Origin: a bacterium BMS3Abin11
Lineage (GTDB): Bacteria; Pseudomonadota; Gammaproteobacteria; BMS3Bbin11
Length of the DNA stretch: 64,000 nt
Direction of reading: 5' to 3'
Assembly (NCBI GenBank): GCA_002897635.1
Contig: BDTD01000006.1
Coordinates: forward strand, 6,152 to 70,151
Notes under the pieces: model-generated
What the model saw: only the letters and a program-made list of their open reading frames with translations
The model's database searches: none
What the model was told of the DNA's origin: nothing
Shown: positions 7,419 to 63,982 of the stretch, piece after piece
Layout of the letters: each line of letters starts with the position of its first letter
How positions within the stretch are numbered: position 1 is the first letter of the stretch
Made by a program: the position numbers and the translations under genes

Positions 7419-7490
7419 ATGTGAATCATTGTATCAAGTTATTTGCCGGCAATGTAGAGGATTTCAAGTCGTGCGGGGAGCACTGATTAT

Positions 7491-9623: not shown

Positions 9624-9643
9624 ACAAAAAGAGGATAGCTCAA

Positions 9644-24001: not shown

Positions 24002-24130
24002 GAGTGCCATCACAGCTTCTTCCTACTTCACTCCATATCATAGGGCACACTCAAGTAGTTATATTGTAAGGGGGAAGGATGATTTCCTCCGCTTTGTGCT
24101 ATCATTTCATTTCAGGCAATTTCAAACAAT

Positions 24131-24158
24131 ATTCCACCTATAATTCCACCAGGTGGAA
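24131..24158. promoter_or_regulatory. Candidate integrase arm-type sites (ATTCCACC x2 plus inverted copy)
   Basis: Reads attccacctataattccaccaggtggaa just upstream of the int ATG. The same motif occurs twice at the other island end (31628-31650). Confidence 0.45.
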
Positions 24159-24168
24159 GGGAGCGCCC

Positions 24169-25416
24169 ATGGCAGCACGCACACCTATTAAGACTGAACT
24201 ACAACTATCAAAGCTCAGGGCTGGCAACAAGCCCTATGACGTGCCAGTAAGTATTGCACCCGGCATGGTGGTGCGCGTTTCACCCGCTGGCCGAAAAACC
24301 TACCGCTGGGATCGAGGTTACGGCCACAAGCCTCGTATAGTGGGCTATGGCAATTTTCCAAGTACAAGCCTGAGCGATGCCGCTAAGGAGCATGAAAAGA
24401 CGCGACAGCGGCACACAGATGGGGTAGACCTACACATGGGGCTGGATTCACCTAAGACCGTTAAGGACTTGGCTGAGCTATTTTACCGTGACCGAATAGT
24501 CCCCCATCGCAAAAGACCGGATGATGTACGTGCGACACTGGATAACGACATTCTTCCAGCATTGGGCAGGATGCACCTTCGTTCAGTGACCACACTGGCT
24601 GTGAGAAGTATGGTGCATAAGGTCGTGGCGCGAGGGGCAACAGTACTCGCGGGAAAAGTTTTAGCCCATACCAAGCAGCTGTTCCGCTTCGGCATATCGG
24701 TGGGCGCGATGGACTATAATCCCGCGGAGAGTTTGGAGGCAATAAGCCTTGGCATTGAGGACAATCGTCGCGACCGAGTGCTGAACAGTAAGGAAATACA
24801 GCAATTTATTGTGGCGTTAGATAAGTATAAGCGGTTATCTATCCCTGTTAAAACTGCACTCAAGTTGCTGTTACTTACAGGTTTGAGAAGTGGCGAGTTA
24901 CGTCAAACTAAGTGGAGCGATGTAGATTTGAATAATGGCACTTTGCTAGTGCCTGTAGTTAATCAAAAATTAAGCCCGAGAAGTGCCAAGGCGGCCAAAC
25001 CATTTATTTGCACTCTCTCTGATCAAGCAATTGTTCTCATAAAAGAGCTGGTTCACCTTGATACTGTGTGGGTCTTCCCCGGCAATAATGAGAATGCACC
25101 GCTGACTGATAAAGTATTTGGCCGTGCAGTTAGACGACTCCTAACCTTGCAAGGAGAGGGCGGGGGTAAAGTGCTGCCTGTTGATGCTTTCAGCCCCCAT
25201 GACCTAAGGAGAACAATGCGGTCAGGGCTAAGTAAGCTACGAATACCGCCCCATGTTGCCGAGCGGTGCCTGAATCACAGCTTGGGGCGAATTGTGGAGA
25301 CATATGACCAGCATGATTATTTAGATGAACGGCGAGAGGCTGTACAGAAGTGGGCTGATCGAGTGGACGTGTATCTTTATCAGGGTGAAAAAGTTGCCGT
25401 GCTAAAAACTGCTTAA
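24169..25416 (+). CDS. int: P4-type tyrosine integrase
   Basis: Carries KPYDVPVSIAPGMVVRVSPAGRKTYRWDRGYG (DUF4102-like), GLRSGELRQTKWSDVDL, HDLRRTMRSGL and ETYDQHDY. The start is at MAARTP because the longer ORF would run into the att repeat. Confidence 0.9.
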   Translation: MAARTPIKTELQLSKLRAGNKPYDVPVSIAPGMVVRVSPAGRKTYRWDRGYGHKPRIVGYGNFPSTSLSDAAKEHEKTRQRHTDGVDLHMGLDSPKTVKDLAELFYRDRIVPHRKRPDDVRATLDNDILPALGRMHLRSVTTLAVRSMVHKVVARGATVLAGKVLAHTKQLFRFGISVGAMDYNPAESLEAISLGIEDNRRDRVLNSKEIQQFIVALDKYKRLSIPVKTALKLLLLTGLRSGELRQTKWSDVDLNNGTLLVPVVNQKLSPRSAKAAKPFICTLSDQAIVLIKELVHLDTVWVFPGNNENAPLTDKVFGRAVRRLLTLQGEGGGKVLPVDAFSPHDLRRTMRSGLSKLRIPPHVAERCLNHSLGRIVETYDQHDYLDERREAVQKWADRVDVYLYQGEKVAVLKTA

Positions 25417-25477
25417 ATCTGATAAGTCTTACTATTATGTACGCACAAGTAAGTTCATGATAAATATAATAAAAGTA

Positions 25478-25505
25478 TTGACATTTTGAAGTAATTTGAT
25501 ATGCT
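25478..25505 (+). promoter_or_regulatory. Possible sigma-70 promoter for the alpA-primase module
   Basis: TTGACA, a 16-nt spacer, then TATGCT. Confidence 0.3.
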
Positions 25506-25642
25506 TAGAACCTAGATGAAGTGGTCAACATATAAAGATCATTTCAAGCGGAAATTTATAATATACCCCATTCACTTTTCGGCCTAAACAGCCCAGAAGC
25601 AATTCACACCGCATCCAGTAAATCCAGTTTTGGAGAAATGCT

Positions 25643-25873
25643 ATGTGTATGAAAAGTGAAGCCCCCCATATAGAAGAACGATTCTATACCAAACGAGACA
25701 TGGCCCGTCGTTATGGCGTGTCTCCCCTAACGATTTGGCGCTGGGTGAAAGCGAAGAAGATTCCCCCGGGTGCCTACATCAACCAAAAGAGCGGCCGGGC
25801 ACCAGAGAAGGTACGTCAGGCAGACGAGATGCTGCTCTCAGCTCAGCACGAGACCACCGACGCAACAAAATAA
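25643..25873 (+). CDS. AlpA/excisionase-type helix-turn-helix protein
   Basis: FYTKRDMARRYGVSPLTIWRWVKAKKIPPG is typical of AlpA / HTH_17 regulators that lie next to P4-type integrases. Confidence 0.7.
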   Translation: MCMKSEAPHIEERFYTKRDMARRYGVSPLTIWRWVKAKKIPPGAYINQKSGRAPEKVRQADEMLLSAQHETTDATK

Positions 25874-25875
25874 AA

Positions 25876-25900
25876 CGCCCCAGTGATGGGGCGGGGTTTT
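25876..25900 (+). terminator. Hairpin with short T-run between alpA-like gene and primase (possible attenuator)
   Basis: CGCCCC-AGTGAT-GGGGCG, then GGGTTTT. Confidence 0.4.
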
Positions 25901-25978
25901 GTGTATTCATCGTAGGCTAAGCGATGGCTGTTATTATACCATGTCTCAGTTACTGTGGCTTCTGAATAAGGAAGCAAC

Positions 25979-28444
25979 ATGACAAACACAACAATCGAAC
26001 AGACTTCCAGTTTCATAGGCTGCTGCTGGGGGGTAGACTTCAATACCAAACTTGATGGCACTTATTGTATTACCTACCTCGAGCCATCAGTCGATGGCAA
26101 GGGTCGCCCCATGATGAAACATATCATGGTTAATACGGCGGCTGAGGCGGCTGAGAAAGCCCTCCTACTGAGCGCCGAGGGGAAGGATACTTACTTCGCC
26201 ATGGCCAAGTATGAACAAGGCTGGCACCCGGACGCGCGTACAGGTAAGAACTGTTTTCGCACGCAAGAGAATGTCGACTCTGCACACGGCCTTTGGGCTG
26301 ACATGGACTGCGGTGTCGAAAAAGCTGCAAAAGCGGAGGGCTACCCCACTAAGATCGATGCGCTGAAGGCGCTAGGCACGTTTCTTGAGGAGTACAGCAT
26401 TTTCCCGCCTACGTATATCGTTGACTCCGGCAACGGGCTGCACGTGCACTGGGTGCTTGACGAGGCAGTAGATAAAGACCGCTGGGATAAGTTGACTAAG
26501 CACCTCAAGGCTAAGGCGCGTGCATCTGGACTGCTTATAGACAACAGTCGTACCACAGACATAGCTTCAGTACTAAGGGTGCCCGGCACGAACAACTACA
26601 AGGACAAATTAAACCCTCTACCCGTACATATTATGCGCACCGGGGAGGTATCCATTCTAGAGGCGCTGGAGACTGCATTGAGTGCTGGAGAGGCACCTCA
26701 GCTCATTCCCAGACAGCGTAAAAAGAGAACCACACTTGATGCGATACTGAGAGCTAGTGGGCTGGAAGAAACTCCCGAGAATATAGCACTCGTAAGGGAA
26801 ATGCTGGCCGTGTTGTTAGCAGACTGTGATCACGACACATGGCTAAAAATCGTATTTGCCATTGCTTCTTTAGGCTGGGAGTGCAGCGAAGAGCTGGCCC
26901 GAGAATGGTCAAAGACTGCCCCCGATGCATACGAAAAGGAGGCGTTCGACAAACTTTGGGAATCCTACGAACCGGGTCGACCAGGCGGAATCACGGTAAG
27001 TACTCTGTTTCACTTAGCTACAGAAGGCGGATGGGTGAATCAACAAACTGAACTACGAATAGCCGACCCAACACAGTATATGACTGGATTCGGTGGTGAC
27101 ATTTCCAACGGTAAGTTGTTCGCGCATTACTACAGGGGCCGACTGGTATTCATACCAGAGTTGAATGAGTGGATTCAATTTGACGAATCTACTGGCTGGG
27201 TTTACCCGGCCCACGGTGAAGTTGAACGCGCTGCCAAAGAAACTGTACAGACGATGCGTAAACAAGCAGCAAAACTATACAAAGAAAACCATGAAAGCCC
27301 AGAGACAAAACGGCTGATGAAGCATGTCGAGGTTTCAAGCAAGATGCCTAAAATCCACGACATGATTAATGCTGCTAAGTCCGAACCGGGGATGGCATTA
27401 AGTCTCAATGAATTTGATGCTGACCTGTGGCTACTAGGTGTTGCAAATGGTGTTATAGATTTACGAACCAACAAGCTGTTACCTGTCACGCCTGATAGCC
27501 GTGTTACTAAACGTTGCAATGTCGAATATGACCGAAAAGCAGTATGTCAAAGGTTCCTCAAGTTTTTGTCTGAGATTATGCCAGACTCAGCGATGCGCGA
27601 TTTTATCCAGCGTTGGGCGGGGTACTGCCTTACCGGGGAGGTGGGCGAGAAAAAATTTCTATTCATGTTCGGCTCTGGTGACAATGGCAAGACCGTGCTG
27701 ATCGAACTGCTGGCATGGATAATGGGGGACTACAGCAAAAAGATCGCCACAGAGGTGCTCATGCATCACCAGCGTAGCCCTCAGGGACCCAGCCCCGATA
27801 TCGTCGCACTGAAAGGGATACGCTTGGCTTACGCTAATGAAACGGAAGAAGGGCGAAGGTTAGCAGAAGCTCGTGTTAAGGACATGACGGGGGGTGATAC
27901 TCTGACAGGGAGAGTGCCATACGCGAAAAAGGATATCACTTTTCAACCCACACATAAGCTGCATATTGTTGGTAACCACAAACCTGAAATTACCGACACA
28001 TCGGGTGGTATGTGGGGGCGAGTTGGCTTGACACCATTTGACGTTGTTATCCCGCAAGAGAAGCGTGATCGAGAACTACTGAAGAAACTCAGGGCTGAGG
28101 GTCCGGGCATACTGAACTGGATGCTGCAAGGCTTACGCCTGTGGCGGATGAACAGTTTAAAGATTCCTAAACAGATGCAGGCAGCCGCCGCTGTATACCG
28201 CGATGAGCAGGACATTATCGGTGAATGGATCGCTGAAGACTGTAATATAGGGTCAGGGCTTACTGCCATGAAAAAACGCCTCTACGCAACCTACACACAT
28301 TGGGCGCATAGAAATGGGCACCGTCCCCTAGCTCAAGTGAGGCTGACTAGGCGACTAAAGGAGCGGGGGTACTCGCTGCTGCCAGATAAACGGACAGTAA
28401 GTGGACTTGAACTAAAACCACATACATGGCCGAGCACATTATGA
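25979..28444 (+). CDS. Primase-polymerase / SF3 helicase replication protein (P4 alpha-like)
   Basis: AEP motifs ADMDCG, DSGNGLHVHWV and LRVPGTNNYK. A PriCT-like segment DHDTWLKIVFAIASLG. D5/P4-type helicase with Walker A FGSGDNGKTV and Walker B-like LAYANETEEG. Confidence 0.88.
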   Translation: MTNTTIEQTSSFIGCCWGVDFNTKLDGTYCITYLEPSVDGKGRPMMKHIMVNTAAEAAEKALLLSAEGKDTYFAMAKYEQGWHPDARTGKNCFRTQENVDSAHGLWADMDCGVEKAAKAEGYPTKIDALKALGTFLEEYSIFPPTYIVDSGNGLHVHWVLDEAVDKDRWDKLTKHLKAKARASGLLIDNSRTTDIASVLRVPGTNNYKDKLNPLPVHIMRTGEVSILEALETALSAGEAPQLIPRQRKKRTTLDAILRASGLEETPENIALVREMLAVLLADCDHDTWLKIVFAIASLGWECSEELAREWSKTAPDAYEKEAFDKLWESYEPGRPGGITVSTLFHLATEGGWVNQQTELRIADPTQYMTGFGGDISNGKLFAHYYRGRLVFIPELNEWIQFDESTGWVYPAHGEVERAAKETVQTMRKQAAKLYKENHESPETKRLMKHVEVSSKMPKIHDMINAAKSEPGMALSLNEFDADLWLLGVANGVIDLRTNKLLPVTPDSRVTKRCNVEYDRKAVCQRFLKFLSEIMPDSAMRDFIQRWAGYCLTGEVGEKKFLFMFGSGDNGKTVLIELLAWIMGDYSKKIATEVLMHHQRSPQGPSPDIVALKGIRLAYANETEEGRRLAEARVKDMTGGDTLTGRVPYAKKDITFQPTHKLHIVGNHKPEITDTSGGMWGRVGLTPFDVVIPQEKRDRELLKKLRAEGPGILNWMLQGLRLWRMNSLKIPKQMQAAAAVYRDEQDIIGEWIAEDCNIGSGLTAMKKRLYATYTHWAHRNGHRPLAQVRLTRRLKERGYSLLPDKRTVSGLELKPHTWPSTL

Positions 28445-40116: not shown

Positions 40117-41622
40117 ATGAAGAAAGAAAATAAAGTTACTGTCTACGCAGATCTAAACTGCCCTTATTGCTACGCACTAAATGAGCGTCTAGTACATCTG
40201 AATGCTGTTCAAGCGGTTATTTGGAGGCCGATCGAGCATGCGCCAGATCTTCACGCACATACCTTTACGAAAAAAGACCGGCAAGAATTAGTTTCGGAGG
40301 TCGATGATGTTAAAGCAAAAGCGGTAGATGTTGCACTTGGTCTACCTAACTCGCGGCTAAATAGTAGGAAAGCCAACGAGTTGCTTGCCACTATCATTCG
40401 TGCTCACCCAGACAAAGCAGTAAATTTTCGTACGGCGGCTTACCGTGCACTTTGGCAACGAGGCGAGGACTTCTCAAATCCTGAAATTCTGGAACAGTTG
40501 CTTGCTTCATGTGGGCTTCCTAATCTGCAGGTCATTTCATCGGCGAAAGATGATCTTTCCGAGTGGCAATGTGCTTGGGAGCTTGGTCAATTTGCTAGAA
40601 AAATCCCAAGCCTTGAATCAAATATTGGTTTTAAAATTCTTGGACTCCCTCCCATCGAGCAGCTTAAAACATTTTTACTTGATGGGAAAACACACATCAC
40701 TAGATTTAAAGATGCAGCTTGCGCCGCATCAGCCCGGTATTTAATTGCGGTAATTTCAGATAAACAGAGTGATTGGCAGAAACCTAAATTATTGGAAGCC
40801 ATATCTTGTTGCAATTTTTACACATCTGTAAATGAGTTTTTAAATAGCTTGTCGGAAAGTAGTAATGTGGACTTGATTGTACTGAATAGTCTAAAGCAGG
40901 ATCCATTAGCTACTATTAGGCAATTAAAAAACTTAACTATGACGCAATATATACCTGTTGTATTGTTGCTTAATGAGGTGAGTGAGAAAATACAAATAGA
41001 TGCATATCGTGCGGGGGTTGCCGAGGTCGCTTCTTCCTCCGATAATGAGGAGATATTGGGTCACCGCATTGTCAGGCAGCTCCATTTCAAAAGATATACC
41101 GATAAACTTTATGAGCTAGCACACATTGACGTCCTGACCGGGTTGCCCAACCGGAGGGAGTTTGATGGGAGTATCAATAGAGAGTGGAAGCGGAGAATGC
41201 GAGAGAAGGGTACCCTGAGTATTCTGATGATTGATGTGGATGGATTCAAGGCCTACAACGATACTTATGGTCACAGCAAGGGCGATGAGGTGTTGCGTCG
41301 TTTAGCTGAAGTAATAAATTCTTGCGTTAATCGCCCGACGGATTTATCTGCGCGTTATGGTGGAGATGAATTTGTATTGATATTACCAGGAACTGATACT
41401 GAGGGTGCAAAATTGGTTGCTGAGTTCATACGTACACAGATTGCGGTCCACAATATCAAAAATATTTCATCACCCGTCCGCCCATATGTTACTGTAAGCA
41501 TTGGGTTGGCAGAAGCAAATAAAACAACGAAAATGTCAATGGAAGAGTTTATTGCAGTTGCCGATATGGCTCTTTATAAAGCTAAAGAGAACGGTCGTGA
41601 TCAAATCATTGTTGCTGATTAA
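40117..41622 (+). CDS. DsbA-like thioredoxin-fold / degenerate receiver / GGDEF diguanylate cyclase fusion
   Basis: The N-terminus VTVYADLNCPYCYALNERL has a CPYC motif and no signal peptide. The middle REC-like block DLIVLNSL has Asn where the phospho-acceptor Asp would be. The C-terminus has the RPTD I-site five residues before RYGGDEFVLIL. Confidence 0.85.
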   Translation: MKKENKVTVYADLNCPYCYALNERLVHLNAVQAVIWRPIEHAPDLHAHTFTKKDRQELVSEVDDVKAKAVDVALGLPNSRLNSRKANELLATIIRAHPDKAVNFRTAAYRALWQRGEDFSNPEILEQLLASCGLPNLQVISSAKDDLSEWQCAWELGQFARKIPSLESNIGFKILGLPPIEQLKTFLLDGKTHITRFKDAACAASARYLIAVISDKQSDWQKPKLLEAISCCNFYTSVNEFLNSLSESSNVDLIVLNSLKQDPLATIRQLKNLTMTQYIPVVLLLNEVSEKIQIDAYRAGVAEVASSSDNEEILGHRIVRQLHFKRYTDKLYELAHIDVLTGLPNRREFDGSINREWKRRMREKGTLSILMIDVDGFKAYNDTYGHSKGDEVLRRLAEVINSCVNRPTDLSARYGGDEFVLILPGTDTEGAKLVAEFIRTQIAVHNIKNISSPVRPYVTVSIGLAEANKTTKMSMEEFIAVADMALYKAKENGRDQIIVAD

Positions 41623-52163: not shown

Positions 52164-52328
52164 CTACCCCAACAATATAATAATAACCCCATACCGCTTA
52201 ATCCAATCGTACAAACTCTTTGTCGCCGTTCCTAATTTCTCGGCTACATCTGACACCGAATAGCCTCGATCGGTAACCTGTTTGACAGCTTCAACCTTGA
52301 ACTCCTCTGTAAAACGCTTCCCACTCAT
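52164..52328 (-). pseudogene. Relic of an IS3-family transposase OrfA (HTH part only)
   Basis: The minus strand encodes MSGKRFTEEFKVEAVKQVTDRGYSVSDVAEKLGTATKSLYDWIKRYG, then ends at the heptamer palindrome. No OrfB follows. Confidence 0.6.
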
Positions 52329-53485: not shown

Positions 53486-54436
53486 TCAACATTTTTTCCA
53501 GTACTGGATTATTGTTGCGCCCTTATTTGTTTTGGAAGTCAATAAGTACTCGAAAAGAGCAAGAGGAAATACAAGCCCTGCAATCGGTAGCCATAGAAAA
53601 AGTTTCCACTTTTGCTGTTGAGCACTACTATGCATTAATTTATAGAGCCTGTTCGGCTTCCCAGGAAAGAACCGATTAAGAGCGCTCTGTAGGAACCCAA
53701 ATATATTTTGCTCAAAAGATCGGTCGCTTTGCTCCAAAAGTTCCAGCTCAAACTCGCTGCAAATTGTTATAAGATTTTCTGGAGTGAAATGCCAGAAGTG
53801 TCTAGGTATATCAAGGTGAAACCAGTTTGCCCCAAACCAGCGCGCCTGTCGACTGGCAAAATTTGGTGTTGCCAGGGCAAGAACTGCGCCTGTTTTCATC
53901 AGACCTACGGCCTGTTGTAGCGTCTTCTTTGGCTCAGGTAAATGTTCAAGAACATGCCATATCACTACTAAATTAAAGCTGTTCGTTGGAAGTAGCTGGT
54001 TAGATAAATTACCAAGGTGGTAGCTATTGCCATGATGGTGTACAGGAACAGGAAAATCATGCCGCTCAAGGCCATGACAATCGCAGTTTCTTTTGGCAAG
54101 CTCATCCAGCAGAACGCCTCGTCCACAACCTATATCTAACACACGGAAGTTATTTTCAGCACTGTCATTTAGAAAGTGCAATAAATATTTTGCTCGATTG
54201 CGGGCACCTGTACGAGTCAGGTATTCAAGCCAGGGATGAAACTTGTTTTTCCTGTTACCGTAGTACGAATTTGTATAATACCTTGACAGCAGATTATCAG
54301 GTACATGCGGGTTGGTTCGAACTAAGCCACATCTACAGCATCGTAAAAGCCTGAACGTGGCAATGCCATTATCAAAGTCTTTTGCGTTGTAGAGAAAATC
54401 TGCAGAAGATGTCTCACAAATTGGACAGTTTTTCAC
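53486..54436 (-). CDS. Class I SAM-dependent methyltransferase with N-terminal Cys4 zinc-ribbon
   Basis: Carries CPICE...CCRCG, motif I VLDIGCGRGVLL, and WHVLEHLPEP. Confidence 0.8.
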   Translation of the reverse strand: MKNCPICETSSADFLYNAKDFDNGIATFRLLRCCRCGLVRTNPHVPDNLLSRYYTNSYYGNRKNKFHPWLEYLTRTGARNRAKYLLHFLNDSAENNFRVLDIGCGRGVLLDELAKRNCDCHGLERHDFPVPVHHHGNSYHLGNLSNQLLPTNSFNLVVIWHVLEHLPEPKKTLQQAVGLMKTGAVLALATPNFASRQARWFGANWFHLDIPRHFWHFTPENLITICSEFELELLEQSDRSFEQNIFGFLQSALNRFFPGKPNRLYKLMHSSAQQQKWKLFLWLPIAGLVFPLALFEYLLTSKTNKGATIIQYWKKC

Positions 54437-54522
54437 ATAAAAACCGTATCGTTCATTCTTAGTAGATTGTCAGTATATCTGGTAAAGGGTCTGTGTCTGG
54501 GTGAAATAAGTTGCACAAGGTA

Positions 54523-55422
54523 TTATATAATATGGCAGGTGAAGCATAACTTACTACCTGTATTTCTTACTCGCAAGAAAGAAGGATTAAACTTACCCGG
54601 GACATTAAATGGGGTAACCCCATGCGGGTCATGACAGCTTGCACATTCAACTTCTGGGCCTTCCCCAGTGTCATACATCCTGATTTCATAGCTATCCGCA
54701 CGTCGATTTCCGTCAGTATCAAAAAAACTCATTGATTCTGTGAAGCCGGTTGGAATTTTGAATTCAGTTCCCAGCCTGGTGGTAGGATAGCGAACGCCAA
54801 TAGGATGGTCATCACGCAGGTCTGTACCGATAGCAAATACGGTGAAATCTGTTGCACCATTGCCTGAGGGGCCACTGCCACGGTCATGGCAGGACAGGCA
54901 ACTCGATGAATCATTTAAAGCATTAAGGCGGTAATGGCGAGTAGTAGGTATCGCTTTCCCACTAGGCCAGGCATTGAGGAAGCTGTTGTCTTCGGTAATG
55001 ACTTGATTGACTGAGTAGTTACCATCTCCTGGCATATTTATTATCGAGTCCATTGCAAGTGTCCCATCATGACAGGAAAGACAGGTTAGAGAATTTACGC
55101 CAGGTTGCGTTACAGTGCCTTGCAGTGTTGCAGTATTGAGCTGGCCGTAAGTAGTGTATACGACCCCGTTTGCAGTTCGATTCCACAAGGGAGCTTCAAG
55201 TACTTTGCTTGTGCCATGAGGTGTGTGGCAGTAAACACAAATCTCACCATAATCATTGCGAACCTGGTCCATGATAACGTTGCCAGCTATACGACTCATG
55301 CTTAAATTGTGGCGAGTATTCGCGATACCGTCACGTTTTGTGTATTTAGTAGGTACATCGGTATCCGCACTAGCTATGTGCCAGATCATTGAGAAAACAA
55401 CAGCTAGCGCTACTTTATGCAC
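54523..55422 (-). CDS. Secreted pentahaem c-type cytochrome
   Basis: Signal peptide, then five CxxCH motifs: CVYCH, CLSCH, CLSCH, CASCH and CFTCH. CxxCHxPHG contexts are typical of multihaem families. Confidence 0.85.
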   Translation of the reverse strand: MHKVALAVVFSMIWHIASADTDVPTKYTKRDGIANTRHNLSMSRIAGNVIMDQVRNDYGEICVYCHTPHGTSKVLEAPLWNRTANGVVYTTYGQLNTATLQGTVTQPGVNSLTCLSCHDGTLAMDSIINMPGDGNYSVNQVITEDNSFLNAWPSGKAIPTTRHYRLNALNDSSSCLSCHDRGSGPSGNGATDFTVFAIGTDLRDDHPIGVRYPTTRLGTEFKIPTGFTESMSFFDTDGNRRADSYEIRMYDTGEGPEVECASCHDPHGVTPFNVPGKFNPSFLRVRNTGSKLCFTCHII

Positions 55423-55519
55423 TGAGTAACCTTTGTAAGAAGATGTACAAAATTTATAAATATATAATTTAAGTGTTCGACTAATATGTGACAGTAATCA
55501 TAATTAATGTACAGCAATA

Positions 55520-57634
55520 TCATTTGCTGCTATCTCGAAATATACTGTTAAAAATCAGTTGGTACCGCTCTGATACGTCGTCTGGAGCATTATCTATTCC
55601 TCGCTGTATTAATCTTTCAGCCTCATCCAGCATACCCAGACGGTAGTAGAGACGCACCAGGTTTATTCTTGCATTAAAGTTATCTCTTCCAGTACTAAGG
55701 GTTTTCTGATAGGTGGTTATTGCTTTCGCGTAATTCTCCTGCTGTGAATAAATTAGAGCAATATGATTTAATACATTTCCATCATCAGGTCTTATGGCAT
55801 TCGCCTGAAGGAATGCCTGTAATGCTGATGCAATATCCCCATTTTTCAAGTTTGCAAGACCTAGATTATACAGAATTCCAAAGCTGTCTGGTTGAAGTTG
55901 ATCAGCTTTTGTTAGTAATTTTATTGCTAACTGATATTCGCCAGTACGTAGCAAATACAGGCCAAACTCGCCCTGAGCTACTACGTTATCAGGGAATTTA
56001 GCTGAATTATCATATAAATGCTTTCTTTTGGAAGAAAGTACTTCTCGCAGCATGGACACTCTATTTTTAATTTTATCTTCATAGAACAGGCTACTCCATT
56101 TTAATCGGTAATCATCAATTTTTAGATAGTATGAGATCGCTGCCATATATTGATCTAATTGTTCATAAGTGCTGGCAATATTAAAAAATACGTGCCCTTG
56201 AACAAGATCAGCTTTGATGCTTACCAGTTTTTCAGCACGCAGAAAGTGCTTAAGTGCCTGGGTATGGTTTTTCTTTTGTGCCGCAATCTCACCTGCCAGC
56301 AGCTCACGAAGATAGGTTGGCATTTTTTCAAAGTGAGGTAATTGTGACACGTCATCATAATTCCTGTCTGACATCAGGCTGGTAAAGTATTGATATTCAG
56401 TGAGTGCCGGATTTACTTTATATGCCGATTCCCAGAGGCTTTGGTCAGATCTCCAGTCGTTACCGCGCACAATAACTGTGATTAGCCAGGTGCATAAAAG
56501 TAATGCTATAAAATATCGGAGGATTACTGATTTAGATGTAAAGGTAAAAAAGGATGATGCTGTTAATGCAAGTCCAAATAGAGCAGGGAATATATAACGT
56601 TCTGCAATCATAGGTGATGTTGGGAATATATTAGACACCGGACCAAGTGCAATAAAAAACCAGCTAAAACCAATAAATGGAAGTATCGATTTTTGACGAA
56701 ATTTCCATAACAATAAAAAGCTGGAAAGGTAAGCAACCAATAGTAGGGTAACTGCCAGTAAACCAGAATAATTTTTTACCAGGGAAGCCTCATCAAGCAC
56801 AATGCTAAGTGGCCATGGAACAACAAAACGGCTTAAATAATAGGCAGGGATGAGAATAACTCGTGCCAGTGAAATTTCTGGATTGAGAATACCCAATCGC
56901 GTCATATCAGGTTGAAGCATACCTTTGTCGGATGCAATTTGCAGATGTAGTAAGATGACAACTGCATTTATAACAAACATGAATGCCAGCAATTTCCACT
57001 GGGTCTTCTTCAGTGCCTTATCACCAGGTAAAGTAAGAAGTATTACCAATAAGGCCAGTGGGAAAAAAACGGCACTGGCTTTAGAGAACAGGGCTAGAGA
57101 AAATGTAAGTAGAGATAATAAATTGCGACCAGAAAGAAACCCTGCTAGTGACAACAACAAAAATAGCATCGCAAGAATATTATTTCTTGCACTTATAAAA
57201 TAAACGGCTTCACTATTCAGTGGATGTAGAGCAAATATTGCAGCCGTCATGAGAGCAAGCTGTTCTGCTCGGCCTGATCCTGCACATTGTGCAAGTTGCC
57301 TGCTTGTCACAAATACTAGCCAAACTGTAATCAGGTAATACAACAGGCTCGAAAGATGAAAACCGAAAGGATTTTTTCCCCAAAGCCAGGCGTCAATGAC
57401 AAGAGAGAAATCTCGTACTGGGAGATATTCAAACTTATTGACAGGAATAGAAACAATTTTGAGCAGGTCTGCACCCCAGTATGCATTTACTGGAAGTAAT
57501 AAAATGTTGTCATCAAAAACAAACCCATTAAGCAGGCCGGGTAAATATGCAAATCCTGTAACAAGCAGGAGAATACCAATTTTCGATGAACTTGATAGAG
57601 TTAGAAGGTGCGTGTTTAATGCTTTTAGAGTCAT
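55520..57634 (-). CDS. GT-C fold glycosyltransferase (PMT/ArnT/TMTC-like membrane domain) fused to C-terminal TPR repeats
   Basis: About 11 TM segments with the first-loop acidic motif NGFVFDDN. The C-terminal ~270 aa are TPR-like (ALKHFLRAEKL, YNLGLANLKNGDIASALQAFLQANAIRPDD and others). Confidence 0.75.
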   Translation of the reverse strand: MTLKALNTHLLTLSSSSKIGILLLVTGFAYLPGLLNGFVFDDNILLLPVNAYWGADLLKIVSIPVNKFEYLPVRDFSLVIDAWLWGKNPFGFHLSSLLYYLITVWLVFVTSRQLAQCAGSGRAEQLALMTAAIFALHPLNSEAVYFISARNNILAMLFLLLSLAGFLSGRNLLSLLTFSLALFSKASAVFFPLALLVILLTLPGDKALKKTQWKLLAFMFVINAVVILLHLQIASDKGMLQPDMTRLGILNPEISLARVILIPAYYLSRFVVPWPLSIVLDEASLVKNYSGLLAVTLLLVAYLSSFLLLWKFRQKSILPFIGFSWFFIALGPVSNIFPTSPMIAERYIFPALFGLALTASSFFTFTSKSVILRYFIALLLCTWLITVIVRGNDWRSDQSLWESAYKVNPALTEYQYFTSLMSDRNYDDVSQLPHFEKMPTYLRELLAGEIAAQKKNHTQALKHFLRAEKLVSIKADLVQGHVFFNIASTYEQLDQYMAAISYYLKIDDYRLKWSSLFYEDKIKNRVSMLREVLSSKRKHLYDNSAKFPDNVVAQGEFGLYLLRTGEYQLAIKLLTKADQLQPDSFGILYNLGLANLKNGDIASALQAFLQANAIRPDDGNVLNHIALIYSQQENYAKAITTYQKTLSTGRDNFNARINLVRLYYRLGMLDEAERLIQRGIDNAPDDVSERYQLIFNSIFRDSSK

Positions 57635-57871
57635 AACTCAAAACAAACAAATAGATTCTTAATTTATAAAACAACTCGCACATATCAATGATAGTTACAG
57701 AGCTTATTGAATAGCTGTAAATTTATGCTTGCATATATGTTTTGAGTTATTATTAAAGATCATGAATTTTCAGCTGTTTATTTCAATGAATAAATACAAA
57801 AATTGAGATACTGACATTGACTGGGTAAAAATATATAAAAATTGCTACACAAATAGATAATACAGGAATCT

Positions 57872-58636
57872 ATGCTTAACGGAAAACACCTGGTTGTAGT
57901 TATGCCGGCCTACAATGCTGCGCAAACCTTGAAGCAGACATGGGATGAGATACCCCACGATTACGTCGATGACGTTATTCTTGTTGATGACTGTTCGGTA
58001 GATACAACGGTGGAAGTTGCTGAAAATCTTGGCATAACAACCATTATACAAGCGGCAAATAGAGGTTATGGGGCAAATCAAAAGCGTTGTTATAAAGAGG
58101 CGCTACGGTTAGGTGCAGATGTCATCATTATGCTCCACCCGGATTATCAATATTCACCTCGTTTGATTCTAACGATGGCAACACTGGTCTTATCCGGGCA
58201 TTACGATGTTGCACTTGGATCCAGAATACTCGGTGGTCATAGTCTGAGCAATGGCATGCCGTTTTATAAATATTTTTCTAACCGTGTACTGACGCTGATC
58301 CAGAATTTATCTCTGGGGGCAAAGTTGTCGGAATATCACACGGGCTACCGCGCCTTTAGTCGTGAAGTTCTGGAGACTTTACCCTTGGAAGAGAATTCTG
58401 ATGATTTTGTGTTTGATAATGAGATGTTATTGCAGTGTCTGTTTTTTAACTTTCAAATTGGTGAAATAAGCTGCCCAACGCGATATTTTCCAACGTCCTC
58501 AAATATTAGTTTTAGACGCTCTGTTAAGTATGGTTTTGGTGTGCTTATCACCACCAGCCGTTATCTAGTTAGTAAATATTTAAATGTTAATGTGGCAATA
58601 TTTAATCAAAATGGTCGTCGGTTAAATAAAGATTAA
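57872..58636 (+). CDS. GT2 family glycosyltransferase (polyprenol-phosphate sugar synthase, DPM1/ArnC-like)
   Basis: Carries VVMPAYNAAQTL, ILVDDCSVDTT and MLHPDYQY. It is divergent from the GT-C/TPR gene. Confidence 0.85.
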   Translation: MLNGKHLVVVMPAYNAAQTLKQTWDEIPHDYVDDVILVDDCSVDTTVEVAENLGITTIIQAANRGYGANQKRCYKEALRLGADVIIMLHPDYQYSPRLILTMATLVLSGHYDVALGSRILGGHSLSNGMPFYKYFSNRVLTLIQNLSLGAKLSEYHTGYRAFSREVLETLPLEENSDDFVFDNEMLLQCLFFNFQIGEISCPTRYFPTSSNISFRRSVKYGFGVLITTSRYLVSKYLNVNVAIFNQNGRRLNKD

Positions 58637-58674: not shown

Positions 58675-59745
58675 TTATTTAAAGAAACCATGTTTTACTG
58701 GTCGGAAAACCTCAATTTTCCTGAACAGTTGGTCAATAACATAAATGCGACCCGTTTCATCTACCCATAAACCAGCAATCAGACTGAATTTACCTGGGCC
58801 ATCTACATTTCCCTGCTGCCCAACTGCAAGCATTATATTACCTGTTGAGTTGAATATTTGAACATTATTAAAAAACCCATCGCTAATATATAGATACCCC
58901 TGCTTGTCTATTGCCATTCGACGGGGGCGAGCAAAGTTACCGGCCCGTTTACCTATACTTCCCCAACTACGTATAAAATTACCATCAGAATCGAAAACCT
59001 GAACACGAAAATTGCCCGCATCCAGAACATAAATTGTACCGTCTTCGGCTGTGGTGATGTCAGCAGGTAAATTGAATTCACCCAAATCTTTACCACGATT
59101 CCCAAAAGAAAATAGATATTTCCCCTTCATATTAAACACGACAACACGGTGTTTATTAGAACTAACTCCACCATTGTCTACCACATAAATATGGTCCGAG
59201 TCTGAATCAACAGTGACGGCTACCGGGTGCGAGAGATACGATTTGCCACCGATGTTGCGCTGGAATAAGCCCAGGCTATCGTAAACCTGTACTCTATGAT
59301 TGCCGGTATCTGTAACATACACCATACCCTGATCATCAACAGTGATGCCGGTCGGTTTATTCAGTTTTCCCTTCTTCCGGTAACCGAAATAAAAATAATG
59401 CCGATTGGGGACATCGAGTACATGTACCAGGCTAGACATTGTATCCGTAATATAGAGTCGACCAAAATAGCTTGTGATATCGTAGGGCTTTGTAAATGTA
59501 CCACTGCTTAAATTCTTACCAAAAACAATATCTTGCAACTTTTGTTCGTCAGATATATTTTGTATTTGCATACCCGAATAAAGTGAGACCTCGTGCATAA
59601 ACTTTGCCTTTGCAGGAGGGGGAGGATAGAGTCGATTCCCTCTGCTAGAGGTATCCGGAGTGGCTGTTGTGCAACCGCTTATCTGAAACAGCAGTCCTAG
59701 AGAGATGAAGATTATTTTTATCTTTTTCAATGATAGTATAATCAA
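58675..59745 (-). CDS. NHL-repeat beta-propeller lipoprotein
   Basis: Lipobox LLFQISGC. Six repeats of the type P.GI.VD..G.IYV.D..N.RVQVFD..G. Confidence 0.85.
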   Translation of the reverse strand: MIILSLKKIKIIFISLGLLFQISGCTTATPDTSSRGNRLYPPPPAKAKFMHEVSLYSGMQIQNISDEQKLQDIVFGKNLSSGTFTKPYDITSYFGRLYITDTMSSLVHVLDVPNRHYFYFGYRKKGKLNKPTGITVDDQGMVYVTDTGNHRVQVYDSLGLFQRNIGGKSYLSHPVAVTVDSDSDHIYVVDNGGVSSNKHRVVVFNMKGKYLFSFGNRGKDLGEFNLPADITTAEDGTIYVLDAGNFRVQVFDSDGNFIRSWGSIGKRAGNFARPRRMAIDKQGYLYISDGFFNNVQIFNSTGNIMLAVGQQGNVDGPGKFSLIAGLWVDETGRIYVIDQLFRKIEVFRPVKHGFFK

Positions 59746-59798: not shown

Positions 59799-60437
59799 TC
59801 ACGGTTTACTTAATATTTTAACAGTACCCGGTGTTAATTTTTTCCATTCCACAGTACTTCCGGTGTGAGATTGAGGCTGATCATGGCAGCTGATACAGGC
59901 ATCTAAATAGAGATTCTTACCAATGACTTGAGTGGGAGATAAAAAATTATTATCTACACCAGCTGAGAGTTCACCCGTTATGTATGGATAGGCATAACGG
60001 TATCTATCATGATCATTCCAGCCATTTTTACGTGAGTGGTAGCGGAGATTGTTCTTTCTTCCACTCATAAATGTTACTCGAATATAGTCTACCACGCTGC
60101 TAATTTGCTGTGGTGTTAGCACCGAGCTGAAAGAGGCCATGGCAGATCCCTGCCGCCCATTGCTAACGCTATTTATCATCCTGTCACGGCTGAGTGAATC
60201 GGGTGGTGTGCGGGTAAAATTACGAGGTTTTGGCAGGACGTAAGCCCCGGTTAATGTTTTTGCATCTCCCGCATAGCCATGGCATTGATAACAATAATAT
60301 TCATAAACCACTTTACCAATTTTTGAATCAACAGTGTTTTGCCCGGTATTGGCAAATGCTGAAATAGTGAATATTAGAGAAGAAGCGATGAAGGCAACAA
60401 TTCCCTGAAATGAGTTGGTATTAACGCGGCAGGTCAT
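59799..60437 (-). CDS. Secreted dihaem c-type cytochrome
   Basis: Signal peptide, then CYQCHGYAGD and CISCHDQ. It overlaps the upstream gene by 17 nt. Confidence 0.8.
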   Translation of the reverse strand: MTCRVNTNSFQGIVAFIASSLIFTISAFANTGQNTVDSKIGKVVYEYYCYQCHGYAGDAKTLTGAYVLPKPRNFTRTPPDSLSRDRMINSVSNGRQGSAMASFSSVLTPQQISSVVDYIRVTFMSGRKNNLRYHSRKNGWNDHDRYRYAYPYITGELSAGVDNNFLSPTQVIGKNLYLDACISCHDQPQSHTGSTVEWKKLTPGTVKILSKP

Positions 60438-61665
60438 AAAACCGTGTTACGCCCCCATAGCTGCCTACCCAGGTACTTCCATCATCACCAAATGCCATTG
60501 AAAAGACACTGTTGGAGAAGAGCCCGTCAGCCACTGTGTATACTTTAAATTTTTCTCCATCAAACCTGGATAACCCGTGGCTGGTACCCACCCAGATAAT
60601 TCCATTTGTATCTTCAACAAGTGTTGAAACATAGTTAGCAGGAAGGCCATCCACCATGGTGTAATTACGCCATTTACCATTCTTGTAGCGAGCTAATCCG
60701 CCACCCCATGTTCCTGCCCAAACAGTGCCTTCATGATCAACCATAATGGAGATAATGTAGTTTGGATTGTAGGCAATATCTACGTTCTGCAGACCCATTT
60801 CTTCTTTCTGTTTAGCATGATGTTTGGATACGCGCGATGGGTCGTTTTTGAATTGATTCTGGTCTTTAACCAGTTCATATTTTTCTCCCAGGCCATCCTT
60901 ATGATTCCAGTTATTCCATTTACCGTCTTTATAACGTGCCACTCCACCTTCTGTAGCCATCCAGAGTTCACCGTTTTTACCTTTTCGAAGTCCATAGACC
61001 CAGTCATTGGGTAGACCACCATTGGTATTTTTAACTGTAAAAGTTTCCCATTTTGAGGAATCATCCAGATCGCCGCCTCGTATAAGGTTAGCGCCTGACC
61101 AGGTTGCAATCCAGACATCACCATTGTCCATTTCGAGCATGTCATAGACAAATGCATCAGCTAGTCCCTGTGGGACATTGTAAGTCTTCCAGCTATTATC
61201 TTCTTCATTCAGTATAGATAGGCCACCACCATATGTTCCTGCGACCAGTTTCCCTTTTAACTTACTAAGGTGAAAAATACCATTTGCCAGCAAGCCAGTA
61301 TTAGTATCGAAGATTTTATGGCTGTTATCGCGTGTATCGTAGCGTATGACACCACCAGATGTACCTATCCACATAACTGGACCATCAGCTAGAATAGCTT
61401 TAACGTTTTTATTGCCTACACGAAAATGATCGAATTTCAGTTTCGTTGTAGCAACTGCTGGAACATTAATAGCAGGCATGGTCGTCGGGTGGGCCCCAGG
61501 TAGTGTATTAGCCATGCTGGTGGGGGCTTTATTAGTCGATGTAACAGCCGTGTGCTGAATTACGGGAGCCGAAGCAGGTTTACTCTTCTGCATACCTGCA
61601 TAATAGCCTGCGCTACCAACAATAACCGTGGCGATCATACCTATAGCAAATGATTTTGTATCCAT
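60421..61665 (-). CDS. Membrane-anchored beta-propeller protein (two-component-regulator-propeller-type repeats)
   Basis: An N-terminal TM helix, a Pro/Thr/Ala-rich linker, then about 7 repeats such as VWIGTSGGVIRYD, LWMATEGGVARYKDGKW and IWVGTSHGLSRFDG. Confidence 0.75.
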   Translation of the reverse strand: MDTKSFAIGMIATVIVGSAGYYAGMQKSKPASAPVIQHTAVTSTNKAPTSMANTLPGAHPTTMPAINVPAVATTKLKFDHFRVGNKNVKAILADGPVMWIGTSGGVIRYDTRDNSHKIFDTNTGLLANGIFHLSKLKGKLVAGTYGGGLSILNEEDNSWKTYNVPQGLADAFVYDMLEMDNGDVWIATWSGANLIRGGDLDDSSKWETFTVKNTNGGLPNDWVYGLRKGKNGELWMATEGGVARYKDGKWNNWNHKDGLGEKYELVKDQNQFKNDPSRVSKHHAKQKEEMGLQNVDIAYNPNYIISIMVDHEGTVWAGTWGGGLARYKNGKWRNYTMVDGLPANYVSTLVEDTNGIIWVGTSHGLSRFDGEKFKVYTVADGLFSNSVFSMAFGDDGSTWVGSYGGVTRFYDLPR

Positions 61666-61756: not shown

Positions 61757-62083
61757 TTAATACAAACTACGAATATAAGTTATTACATCCAGCATCTCTC
61801 TTTCCGAAAGAATATTTTCGAATGCTGGTGCAGGGCCACTGCCAATTTGCAGGTGTCGAATAAGTTGGCTGTCGGGTTTCATTATGCCTTCACCACGAGT
61901 AAAGTTTGGCGCATCAGGTACTTCACCCATTCCAGTACTGCCATGGCAGTTTACACAATGTCTATTATAGATTTTACTGCCATTGTAGTAATCGGCTGAA
62001 TATGCAGAAGTCTGAATTAGCACAAGCAGGGATGGCAATATATAGTGTAAAAAAATACATTTTTTCTGAAATCCCTGCTGCAT
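61757..62083 (-). CDS. Monohaem class I cytochrome c
   Basis: Signal peptide, the haem-binding motif CVNCHG, and a distal Met region. Confidence 0.8.
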   Translation of the reverse strand: MQQGFQKKCIFLHYILPSLLVLIQTSAYSADYYNGSKIYNRHCVNCHGSTGMGEVPDAPNFTRGEGIMKPDSQLIRHLQIGSGPAPAFENILSEREMLDVITYIRSLY

Positions 62084-62085: not shown

Positions 62086-62733
62086 CTATTGAACCACTCC
62101 TGAACCCGTGGACTTAGTTGCATCTGTAATAGTTTTTAATTTACTTTCGAGTTCTTCTGCCTGTGCTTTATTGATTTCAAGCCCAAGTTCACCATTATCC
62201 AAAGCGGCTGCTTTTCGCTGTATTGCCCAAAGCATATTAGTTGCCACTCCGGCATCAATAATTTCATTTGCTTTGTCAAAATCAGGCTCTATATCAAATA
62301 AGCCCAATTCGTAAACCTGGGCCATTAATTCCATTCCTTTGGCGTATTGTTGTTCTGCTGATTTAGCAATCCATTGAAAGGCCTGTTTGTTATCCTGCTT
62401 GACCCCTTCGCCTTTCGAGTACATCGTGCCCAGCCCATATTGTCCCTCCGCATTACCTTTTTTTGCTGCTTTCTGGTACCAGGTGACTGCTTCATCATTC
62501 AGTTCTGCGCCATCTAGTACCCAGCCTAGCTTTGCCATGGCTGCTACAGAACCATTGTTTGCGGCAGATTTAAACTGTCTTATTGCAGCAGTTATATCAC
62601 CTCGCTCCATGCTAAGCATGCCCTGATTGTACAGTTCGTCAGCTGATGAATCTGCCAGGGCAGGGTTCGCCGTTAGCAAGGCAAGCAACAATATCATAAA
62701 AGAAGGGAAAGTGGTGAGAGTTCGGCGTGACAT
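62086..62733 (-). CDS. Secreted Sel1-repeat (TPR-like) protein
   Basis: The start was trimmed to MSRRTLTTFPSFMILLLALLTANPALA. Sel1 units include AVTWYQKAAKKGNAEGQYGLGTMYSKGEGV and AFQWIAKSAEQQYAKG. Confidence 0.8.
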   Translation of the reverse strand: MSRRTLTTFPSFMILLLALLTANPALADSSADELYNQGMLSMERGDITAAIRQFKSAANNGSVAAMAKLGWVLDGAELNDEAVTWYQKAAKKGNAEGQYGLGTMYSKGEGVKQDNKQAFQWIAKSAEQQYAKGMELMAQVYELGLFDIEPDFDKANEIIDAGVATNMLWAIQRKAAALDNGELGLEINKAQAEELESKLKTITDATKSTGSGVVQ

Positions 62734-62836
62734 GCTGGAATATAGTGTAAATGAAATATTTGTTGATAAGAAAATCATAATTTTATCTACTATTGTTGCC
62801 ATTATTGTCAGAGTGGCTCAGCTTGTATTAAATATT

Positions 62837-63262: not shown

Positions 63263-63982
63263 TCAGTTGGGTTTTTTCTCGGCGTTGTGGCAACGGTCAC
63301 AATTGTACACGCTAAATGCCACTTTATCGTGACAAACACCACAATATTTTCCTCGGAAGTTTAATTCCATAGTAATCGGGTTCGCTCCCGTTTTTTTAAT
63401 AAAAGGTGAGGGATGACAGTTACTGCATGCTAGCCATTCCGTATGTGCTCTGTGCGGGAATTTTACCCATGCCATTTGCCGCGTATCTTTCATAATTATA
63501 TTAAGATCAAGAACTTCCATGCGTCCTGCCCCGTGGATACTGGCGCGAGGCGTAATCAAGCCACGACGAAGTGTTTTTACCCAGTCCGGGTTGCCGAGAT
63601 CATCGTGTGGGAAATCTGCCATCGCTGTTGTGGGGTCCTGTATGATCTGATAACTCACATTGCTTTTATCTTTGAGCTTACGCTTGTTCCCCGCGAGAAC
63701 CGCACCTTCAAGTGTTGCATGTGGTTTATGAACAGGAATCTTACCCGTTTGCCAACTGCCGGTTGGATCTAACCGCTCAGGTATGGCGGCTTTTTGAGTG
63801 GAAGTAATAGCTGCTTGTTCTTCAGCTAAGGTTTTAGTTGCAGCAACAGGTGTGGTGCTGTTTTCAATTTTAGAACTTTGGTTTTCATCTATATTTGTCT
63901 GGCAGCTACTTAACAGAAAAAATACTGTCACTAGCTTAAACTGAAAACAAAAACTCATGTCTTCAAGATTTATATTTATCAC
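63263..63982 (-). CDS. Trihaem c7-type cytochrome lipoprotein
   Basis: Lipobox FFLLSSC, a Ser/Thr-rich linker, and C-terminal VKFPHRAHTEWLACSNCH...YCGVCH...NCDRCH. Confidence 0.8.
   Translation of the reverse strand: MININLEDMSFCFQFKLVTVFFLLSSCQTNIDENQSSKIENSTTPVAATKTLAEEQAAITSTQKAAIPERLDPTGSWQTGKIPVHKPHATLEGAVLAGNKRKLKDKSNVSYQIIQDPTTAMADFPHDDLGNPDWVKTLRRGLITPRASIHGAGRMEVLDLNIIMKDTRQMAWVKFPHRAHTEWLACSNCHPSPFIKKTGANPITMELNFRGKYCGVCHDKVAFSVYNCDRCHNAEKKPN

Follow-up and report, generated by a model that had tools for sequence, protein, structure and literature searches.

Cytochrome nanowires conduct electrons over micrometres, and the glycans on their surface are believed to act as insulation and to govern bundling. 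Among described systems, the omcE clusters of Geobacter and Geomonas come closest to the locus reported here (bioRxiv 10.1101/2025.10.22.684050; PDB 7TFS). OmcE filaments of G. sulfurreducens show extra densities that have been read as "extensive glycosylations", whereas OmcE of D. soudanensis lacks such densities (PMC9473688; bioRxiv 10.1101/2025.10.22.684050). Glycosylation genes beside omcE were already pointed out in a 2025 preprint, which describes omcE clusters as trailed by glycosyltransferase (GT2, GT4, GT39), methyltransferase and tetratricopeptide repeat (TPR) genes, and regards five-haem OmcE-like proteins, in which the haem chain is predicted to persist, as a possible new nanowire family (bioRxiv 10.1101/2025.10.22.684050). 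In the literature that we searched, no enzyme has been assigned to the OmcE glycans. Here we analyse a stretch of 64,000 nucleotides from the gammaproteobacterium BMS3Abin11 (contig BDTD01000006.1, positions 6,152 to 70,151; hereafter the window), in which the gene of an OmcE-like cytochrome lies between genes for a TPR-bearing membrane glycosyltransferase of the GT-C type and a methyltransferase, with a GT2 gene close by. On balance, we favour the view that these genes specify a compact two-step protein-glycosylation system within an extracellular-electron-transfer operon, and that the OmcE-like cytochrome is its main substrate.

An initial annotation, made from the sequence alone, held that a dedicated glycosylation system for exported redox proteins would be new. 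That went too far, since OmcE glycosylation and neighbouring glycosylation clusters had both been described (PMC9473688; bioRxiv 10.1101/2025.10.22.684050), at the level of electron cryomicroscopy densities and synteny. What the window adds is (i) a gammaproteobacterial case with a five-haem cytochrome; (ii) a minimal three-gene module interleaved with the proposed substrate gene; (iii) a core conserved across phyla, made up of a single GT2 orthologue and a single family of TPR-bearing GT-Cs; and (iv) a co-conserved methyltransferase. The four genes singled out by the initial annotation are all where it had placed them, and the gap between the GT-C and GT2 genes is exactly 237 nt:

53486-54436, minus strand: class I S-adenosylmethionine (SAM)-dependent methyltransferase, 316 amino acids (aa) (Methyltransf_23, E 5e-23, 82 bits against a cutoff of 27)
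54523-55422, minus strand: exported five-haem OmcE-like cytochrome c, 299 aa (five CXXCH motifs; Paired_CXXCH_1 match)
55520-57634, minus strand: predicted GT-C-fold glycosyltransferase with TPR, 704 aa (GFVFDDN at residues 37-43; TPR matches at about 540-690)
57635-57871, no strand: AT-rich spacer separating the divergent GT-C and GT2 genes (gap of exactly 237 nt to the GT-C start codon)
57872-58636, plus strand: soluble GT2 without a membrane helix, 254 aa (Glycos_transf_2, E 5.5e-21)

The likeness to the Geobacter and Geomonas clusters lies in the pairing of an OmcE-family cytochrome with an NHL propeller, in a GT2 orthologue (57-62 % identity) and in a TPR-bearing GT-C with the same catalytic residues. 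The window differs in that its cytochrome has five haems in 299 aa and its host is a gammaproteobacterium close to metagenome-assembled genomes (MAGs) of Arenicellales. Furthermore, its glycosylation genes number just three, against 15-70, and are interspersed with the cytochrome gene instead of trailing behind the cluster. Its module includes a conserved zinc-ribbon methyltransferase, and no GT4, Wzx or beta-barrel gene was seen in the window, where no search was aimed at beta-barrels.

The initial annotation had described a secreted pentahaem cytochrome. The five CXXCH motifs and a signal-peptide-like N-terminus, ending in ASA followed by DT, agree with this description, but its kinship with OmcE had been missed. 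The protein matched 7tfs_A and 9yuq_N in the PDB both as a single sequence (E 2e-14 and 1e-16) and as a family profile (1.9e-22 and 1.3e-22). The depositor names are generic ('Cytochrome c' and 'Putative multiheme cytochrome c'), and 7tfs we take to be the G. sulfurreducens OmcE filament. Its companion 9yuq appears to be the D. soudanensis OmcE bundle, judging from the description in bioRxiv 10.1101/2025.10.22.684050. Haems 1, 2, 4 and 5 align to OmcE, their motifs CVYCH, CLSCH, CASCH and CFTCH corresponding to the four motifs of OmcE, and the third motif (CLSCH, residues 175-179) lies within an insertion of ~46 aa. The family is very large and well conserved: at least 7,588 homologues were scored, mean column identity in the alignment is 65 %, and five histidines outside the motifs are invariant in the family alignment (A2). 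At the level of sequence, the window cytochrome is a five-haem homologue of Geobacter OmcE.

AlphaFold models of the membrane protein predict 11 long helices (residues ~15-393) followed by a TPR domain of ~300 aa starting at ~397, with a predicted local distance difference test score (pLDDT) of 83 for the full protein and, for the N-terminal domain alone, a pLDDT of 91 and a predicted template modelling score of 0.92. Helix parity would place the TPR domain in the periplasm. The full-length model retrieved TPR proteins only in the fold search, and the N-domain was hence modelled separately. Its top Foldseek matches are all GT-C enzymes, or GT-C-like in the case of PIG-U (PglB 5ogl/6gxc, ArnT 5ezm, STT3, PIG-U, PimE, EmbB and ALG9), with a probability of 1.0 and template modelling scores of only ~0.4. 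Sequence and profile searches of the PDB with the N-domain returned no GT-C structures, just TPR noise. According to the model, the N-domain has a GT-C fold without a close solved relative.

Conservation of the membrane enzyme is concentrated in a few motifs. Invariant in the close family (alignment A1) are FVxDD, EYLPVRD, HP, R150, K185 and A[DE]RY, with K185 replaced by N in two Geobacter GT-Cs. D41, D42 and R346 are invariant both in A1 and in the OmcE-adjacent Geobacter copies; in alignment A3, D41 and R346 are again invariant and D42 is kept at 90 % or more. DD, HP, R150 and R346 are retained in every copy compared, the OmcE-adjacent Geobacter ones included. Because these residues are conserved on a GT-C fold, the enzyme looks active. 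The wider superfamily of TPR-bearing GT-Cs comprises 35,682 clusters at 50 % identity (E <= 1e-3), or 7,306 at E <= 1e-10, and the subfamily nearest to the window enzyme is a small one of ~20 clusters (E < 1e-57).

To which glycosyltransferases is this enzyme related? The initial annotation had likened it to ArnT, PMT and TMTC proteins together. Like eukaryotic TMTC1-4, it combines an 11-helix GT-C domain with a following TPR on the non-cytoplasmic side (a sidedness predicted here). As in TMTC, its first external loop bears a DD motif, loop 3 contains a lysine, and an ER-type arginine precedes helix 10; it is also accompanied by a GT2 that would, by homology, make the lipid-linked donor as DPM1 does for TMTC. 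The roles of the DD motif and of the ER-type arginine have been described for TMTC, in which the TPR lies on the same side as the catalytic loop, a DUF1736 loop separates helices 7 and 8, and the characteristic motifs are SHKSYRP, KET(Q)xxT and DW (PMC7801869). In contrast, the window GT-C is bacterial, the three motifs are absent or replaced (EYLPVRD, SKAS), and neither it nor 18 N-domains of the family matched DUF1736 (PF08409), a domain that a few distant GT-C homologues do carry. Thus, the TMTC likeness holds for the 11 helices, the TPR and the DD motif, yet judged by sequence the enzyme resembles TMTC on paper and falls outside that family.

Grouping with PMT or ArnT could not be upheld. 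The PMT/GT39 enzymes (yeast Pmt1/2; actinobacterial Pmt with Ppm1) follow the same two-step polyprenol-phosphate sugar logic on exported proteins and share a weak PMT_2 similarity with the window protein (E 1e-3 for the full protein, 4.6e-4 for the N-domain). However, the score of 20.9 bits lies under the Pfam cutoff of 26.1, just 4 of 18 family members match PMT_2 at all, TPR stands in place of MIR, for which the protein gave no match, and no PMT structure was among the top 50 Foldseek matches of the N-domain. ArnC/ArnT, which add aminoarabinose to lipid A, and GtrB/Gtr, which glucosylate O-antigen, also pair a GT2 polyprenol-phosphate sugar synthase with a GT-C, but their acceptor is a lipid or polysaccharide and their enzymes are not known to carry TPR; the window GT-C has TPR and no ArnT model match in Pfam or NCBIfam, and it resembles ArnT in fold alone.

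The two-step logic of GT2 and GT-C proposed by the initial annotation fits the homology of both proteins, the GT2 resembling polyprenol-phosphate sugar synthases and the GT-C fold carrying the DD and ER motifs. Among NCBIfam models, the GT2 comes nearest to AglJ, dolichyl-phosphate hexose transferase and PpgS, with scores that stay far under each cutoff; its sole PDB match is the Pyrococcus Dol-P-Man synthase 5mlz (E 6e-10), and it scores 23 bits with the ArnC model against a cutoff of 529. It is 57-69 % identical, across phyla, to GT2s that adjoin GT-C or OmcE genes. We regard it as a candidate synthase of polyprenol-phosphate hexose, akin to DPM1, AglJ and PpgS. The methyltransferase, whose gene is the last in the run of GT-C, cytochrome and methyltransferase, has an N-terminal zinc-ribbon pattern (CPIC...CCRCG, that is, CxxC...CxxC) and, at its C-terminus, one hydrophobic membrane helix (residues 281-299) that the initial annotation did not mention; it received no equivalog-level assignment among the NCBIfam models.

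Neighbourhood comparison showed that the association of methyltransferase, GT-C/TPR and GT2 is kept across phyla. In locus L085, whose GT-C is 88 % identical, the window arrangement and its neighbours are preserved. Relatives at ~40 % identity have a recurring set of methyltransferase, GT-C/TPR and GT2, often with an LPG_synthase_TM gene (P0003, P0006, P0008 and P0009), and homologues of the methyltransferase (27-44 % identity) share the GT-C module in L088, L082, L002, L003 and L169. In P0011, P0012 and P0017, the GT-C occurs alone, without the rest of the module. Methyltransferase, GT-C/TPR and GT2 thus form a module conserved across phyla, and the observation goes beyond chance because L085 keeps the arrangement and the proteins belong to conserved families.

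The module is linked to OmcE-like genes repeatedly. Close relatives of the GT-C are directly flanked by OmcE-like genes in four lineages: the window with L085, L169, L003 and L005. The order in L169 (P0019) is OmcE-like, GT-C, methyltransferase, second GT-C, GT2; in L003 (Nitrospirae) it is OmcE-like, three GT-Cs, methyltransferase, GT-C, GT2, with convergent NHL, 11-haem and 4-haem genes; and in L005 (Acidobacteria) an OmcE-like gene and a 42-haem gene lie upstream of the GT-C. More distant GT-Cs in L009, L031 and L036 also adjoin OmcE-like genes, NHL genes or both. We then turned to 40 true OmcE loci, fetched using a fragment of the 7TFS sequence. Nineteen of these 40, mostly from Desulfuromonadia, have the GT2 and/or the GT-C within 10 kb: the GT2 orthologue (E ~1e-100, 57-62 % identity) occurs in 13 and a homologous GT-C in 14. 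L262 shows the order OmcE, GT-C, NHL, and one contig of Geobacter sp. OR-1 carries both the GT-C locus L007 and, ~12 kb away, the OmcE locus L273. G. hydrogenophilus has resB, ccsB, two multihaem cytochromes, NHL, OmcE, a 752-aa protein, GT2, GT-C/TPR, GT2, GT4 and Wzx, an order that agrees with the published account of omcE clusters. The GT2 orthologue and homologous GT-Cs are hence found beside omcE genes in Desulfuromonadia, Nitrospirota and Acidobacteriota, and the link between module and cytochrome is recurrent, not peculiar to the window.

Some members of the family have other neighbours. On the contig of P0006 (L080, 1-5525), the methyltransferase/GT2/GT-C module adjoins a batA/B/D, DUF58 and MoxR operon; an operon of this type flanks the uet electron-uptake cluster in Tenderiales (bioRxiv 10.1101/2022.05.06.490989). 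The GT-C/TPR relatives P0017 (L084, 4623-5820) and P0023 of Geobacter sp. AOG2 (L170, 14963-15590) lie near type IV pilin-like (N_methyl) genes, not cytochromes, which hints that the GT-C/TPR family may serve other extracellular filament subunits. L170 also encodes an OGT-like Glyco_transf_41/TPR protein of 1,203 aa. The 42-haem gene of L005, an Acidobacteria MAG, is an open reading frame (ORF) of 1,068 aa with 42 CXXCH motifs (6658-9864, plus strand), placed between the OmcE-like five-haem gene and the GT-C/TPR gene.

What could be the mechanism of glycosylation? At the cytoplasmic face of the membrane, the soluble GT2 would, by homology, charge undecaprenyl phosphate with a hexose taken from a nucleotide sugar. 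The methyltransferase, tethered to the membrane, may then methylate the lipid-linked sugar while it still faces the cytoplasm; we place this step there because SAM exists only in the cytoplasm, and Haloferax AglP is a precedent for methylating a lipid-linked sugar. A flippase would carry the lipid-linked sugar across the membrane, the LPG_synthase_TM protein being a candidate in relatives. In the periplasm, the 11-helix GT-C would move the sugar to Ser/Thr residues of a protein, held by the periplasmic TPR domain. The prime substrate would be the five-haem OmcE-like cytochrome encoded between GT-C and methyltransferase, whose modification would follow Sec export and haem attachment and precede secretion or polymerisation; its NHL partner and neighbours with Ser/Thr-rich linkers may be modified too. 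The 237-nt region presumably holds the promoters of both the GT-C and the GT2. Gene content, GT-C fold, conserved catalytic motifs, OmcE homology and recurrent synteny are what the analysis shows; donor sugar, methylation step, acceptor and co-transcription are what we infer here.

That the cytochrome is the substrate, an idea already put forward in the initial annotation, draws support from its OmcE homology, from the glycosylated OmcE of Geobacter and from the recurrent synteny, and several observations weigh against it. No glycan has been observed on the window cytochrome or on any five-haem homologue. GT-C was found in 0 of 80 proteobacterial five-haem loci, and glycosylation is therefore at best optional. 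In most close relatives of the module (P0003, P0006, P0008, P0009, P0011, P0012 and P0017), the surrounding 8-10 kb contain no cytochrome gene, and the first four of these have LPG_synthase_TM and envelope-type glycosyltransferase genes instead. The Ser/Thr content of OmcE is alike with and without glycosyltransferase genes (0.203 versus 0.209, p = 0.79), in a crude comparison that scored such genes within 10-kb flanks only. The inference that a TPR implies a protein substrate keeps the support of the TMTC-like architecture but gains none from the fold: PglB, which acts on protein, and ArnT, which acts on lipid, are equal in Foldseek (E 2e-3 and 4e-3), and because they score alike the fold comparison cannot tell one acceptor from the other. 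Finally, no LPG_synthase_TM or other flippase homologue was found in the window, and a scan for consensus promoters and terminators gave sites no more frequent than in shuffled sequence, the operon structure being inferred.

These points leave room for a module that decorates a non-protein envelope glycoconjugate (lipid A or the lipopolysaccharide core, a periplasmic glucan or an anchoring exopolysaccharide) in the manner of ArnC/ArnT or GtrB/Gtr, with the OmcE adjacency reflecting a matrix or anchor needed by the cytochromes, or mere insertion. We consider this unlikely, although it would account for the four close relatives in which the module is accompanied by LPG_synthase_TM, GT4, GT2, sulfatase-family (Pfam Sulfatase/Phosphodiest) and PMT_2 genes and by no cytochrome, for the GT2, GT4 and Wzx-type flippase genes, typical of polysaccharide clusters, that accompany the Geobacter GT-C, and for the presence of ArnT among the best structural matches; a transposase remnant at the cluster edge and lower GC content hint at rearrangement. 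We know of no ArnT or Gtr enzyme with a TPR domain. Against an envelope acceptor, it is the TMTCs, which act on protein, that are marked out by a TPR fusion on the side of catalysis (PMC7801869), OmcE itself has been seen glycosylated (PMC9473688; bioRxiv 10.1101/2025.10.22.684050), and the cytochrome gene adjoins or is sandwiched by module genes in four independent lineages, in differing orders. ArnT-like lipid A modification as the primary reading was set aside in view of the TPR fusion and the OmcE synteny, and survives as one form of this alternative.

Alternatively, the module could serve general periplasmic O-glycosylation of many exported proteins with low-complexity Ser/Thr/Pro linkers, such as propellers, the c7 lipoprotein and pilins. 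In that case, the OmcE-like cytochrome would be neither the main nor a necessary target. The Ser/Thr/Pro/Ala-rich linkers of several neighbours, the two GT-C relatives next to pilin-like (N_methyl) genes and a superfamily of 7,306 clusters at E <= 1e-10, which implies many substrates, all speak for such a system; the tight recurrent adjacency, on the other hand, is to OmcE-type genes specifically, with the GT2 orthologue in 13 of the 40 OmcE loci, and the closest subfamily amounts to ~20 clusters at E < 1e-57. We hold it to be less probable still. Very improbable is a non-catalytic role of the GT-C/TPR protein as a scaffold or chaperone for cytochrome maturation or export, with GT2 and methyltransferase as unrelated neighbours. 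TPR proteins such as NrfG and those of the CcmH type do assist the maturation of multihaem cytochromes (discussed in bioRxiv 10.1101/2022.05.06.490989), and the window protein has a weak TPR_CcmH_CycH match, but the catalytic DD, HP, R150 and R346 are kept in all copies compared, including those next to omcE in Geobacter, and the GT2 is co-conserved at 57-69 % identity. Glycosylation of the OmcE-like cytochrome by the three-gene module is the reading that we retain.

The module sits in an operon of cytochromes and propellers, which continues on the far side of GT2:

58675-59745, minus strand: NHL-repeat six-bladed beta-propeller lipoprotein (NHL, E 4e-30; lipobox ISGC)
59799-60437, minus strand: dihaem cytochrome c of class-I type, 212 aa (found again in 21 of the 80 five-haem family loci)
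60421-61665, minus strand: membrane-anchored Reg_prop beta-propeller with a Ser/Thr/Pro/Ala-rich linker (syntenic in L101, L124, L153, L155 and L162)
61757-62083, minus strand: monohaem cytochrome c, 108 aa (library match and haem motif count)
62086-62802, minus strand: Sel1/TPR-repeat protein, 238 aa (first gene in the order Sel1, cytochrome c, propeller, dihaem, NHL, OmcE-like)
63263-63982, minus strand: c7-type trihaem-domain lipoprotein whose linker is rich in Ser/Thr (TIGR04257, E 1.7e-17)

The Ser/Thr/Pro-rich linkers that the initial annotation had noticed in the propeller at 60421-61665 and in the c7 protein at 63263-63982 are visible in the translations. The NHL propeller is the constant companion of these cytochromes: its gene directly adjoins the cytochrome gene in 62 of the 80 five-haem loci, and NHL is present in 38 of the 40 OmcE loci. 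In L101 (Chromatiales), the order Sel1, cytochrome c, propeller, propeller, dihaem, NHL, cytochrome reproduces that of the window with one extra propeller, and the operon is flanked by c7 genes in L101, L114, L120 and L156. In the window, GT2 and GT-C/TPR separate NHL from the cytochrome, where nothing intervenes in related operons, and the methyltransferase comes after the cytochrome. Of the large outer-membrane beta-barrel expected in an OmcE-type cluster, no candidate was seen among the ORFs examined at 52-64 kb; no search was aimed at beta-barrels, and the window ends within the cluster. In its mix of c7-type trihaem, NHL propeller, TPR and multihaem cytochrome proteins, as in its gammaproteobacterial host, the operon recalls the uet cluster of Tenderiales (bioRxiv 10.1101/2022.05.06.490989). 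However, the two clusters differ in the genes they contain and in the order of these genes: the undecahaem UetJ and the UetC barrel were not seen in the window (with the same proviso on beta-barrels), and Uet has no glycosyltransferases.

Many loci of Burkholderiales and Gammaproteobacteria (L089-L168, e.g. L090, L092, L097, L101 and L112-L114) contain two pairs of NHL and OmcE-like genes. The five-haem type of ~300 aa belongs to one pair and a more distant paralogue (E ~1e-35) to the other. With two dihaem cytochromes between them, the pairs are oriented head to head, an arrangement suggestive of a conserved duplicated unit.

The methionyl-tRNA synthetase encoded next to the cluster shares 95 % identity with its counterpart in "Gammaproteobacteria bacterium BMS9Abin25" and 85-91 % with those of Arenicellales MAGs; the BMS9Abin25 contig stops 2,063 nt past metG, on the side where the window has the cluster. 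GC content is ~0.38-0.43 in the cluster versus ~0.47-0.50 in most of the housekeeping part of the window, and one further feature lies between metG and the cytochrome/glycosylation cluster:

52164-52328, minus strand: truncated N-terminus of an IS3-type transposase, 54-aa ORF (HTH_Tnp_1, E 2.5e-14)

Past the methyltransferase, L085 has two large multihaem cytochromes, where the window has a DUF4136-like lipoprotein and metG. The cluster edge at the transposase remnant looks like a rearrangement boundary.

The remaining window is ordinary chromosome (dnaK, dnaJ, hrcA, recN, obg, proB, murJ and metG) with two islands bearing integrases. A tyrosine integrase gene (5683-6876, minus strand) directly adjoins the tmRNA gene (7061-7418, minus strand), an nSTAND3 NTPase of 756 aa is encoded at 1897-4167, and GC content over 1897-7418 is 0.37-0.43. 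Because of the low GC and the integrase/tmRNA layout, 1897-7418 looks like an ssrA-integrated island with a STAND-type defence or signalling protein. A second integrase gene (24079-25416, plus strand) is followed by one for a D5_N/PriCT_2 primase-helicase of 821 aa (25979-28444, plus strand), and 24079-28444 resembles a small integrated satellite or prophage-like element. A 501-aa protein (40117-41622, plus strand) joins an N-terminal DsbA-like thioredoxin domain to a C-terminal GGDEF diguanylate cyclase domain. An Rfam scan of the region gave no match.

What would the locus mean for the biology of nanowires? We propose, as a tentative idea that is possible rather than probable, that GT-C/TPR, GT2 and methyltransferase are the machinery that O-glycosylates OmcE-type nanowire subunits in the periplasm, possibly with a methylated hexose; that the GT-C/TPR enzyme is a bacterial counterpart of TMTC in function; and that marine gammaproteobacteria near the Arenicellales MAGs make glycosylated five-haem OmcE-like nanowires. 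The locus narrows the problem of the glycan enzymes to three genes around one candidate substrate gene, and the cross-phylum core offers Geobacter geneticists specific targets for knock-out. OmcE-type systems would extend to uncultured marine gammaproteobacteria and, if the proposal is true, a function would for the first time be assigned within the TPR-bearing GT-C enzymes, a bacterial family that is very large and so far uncharacterised.

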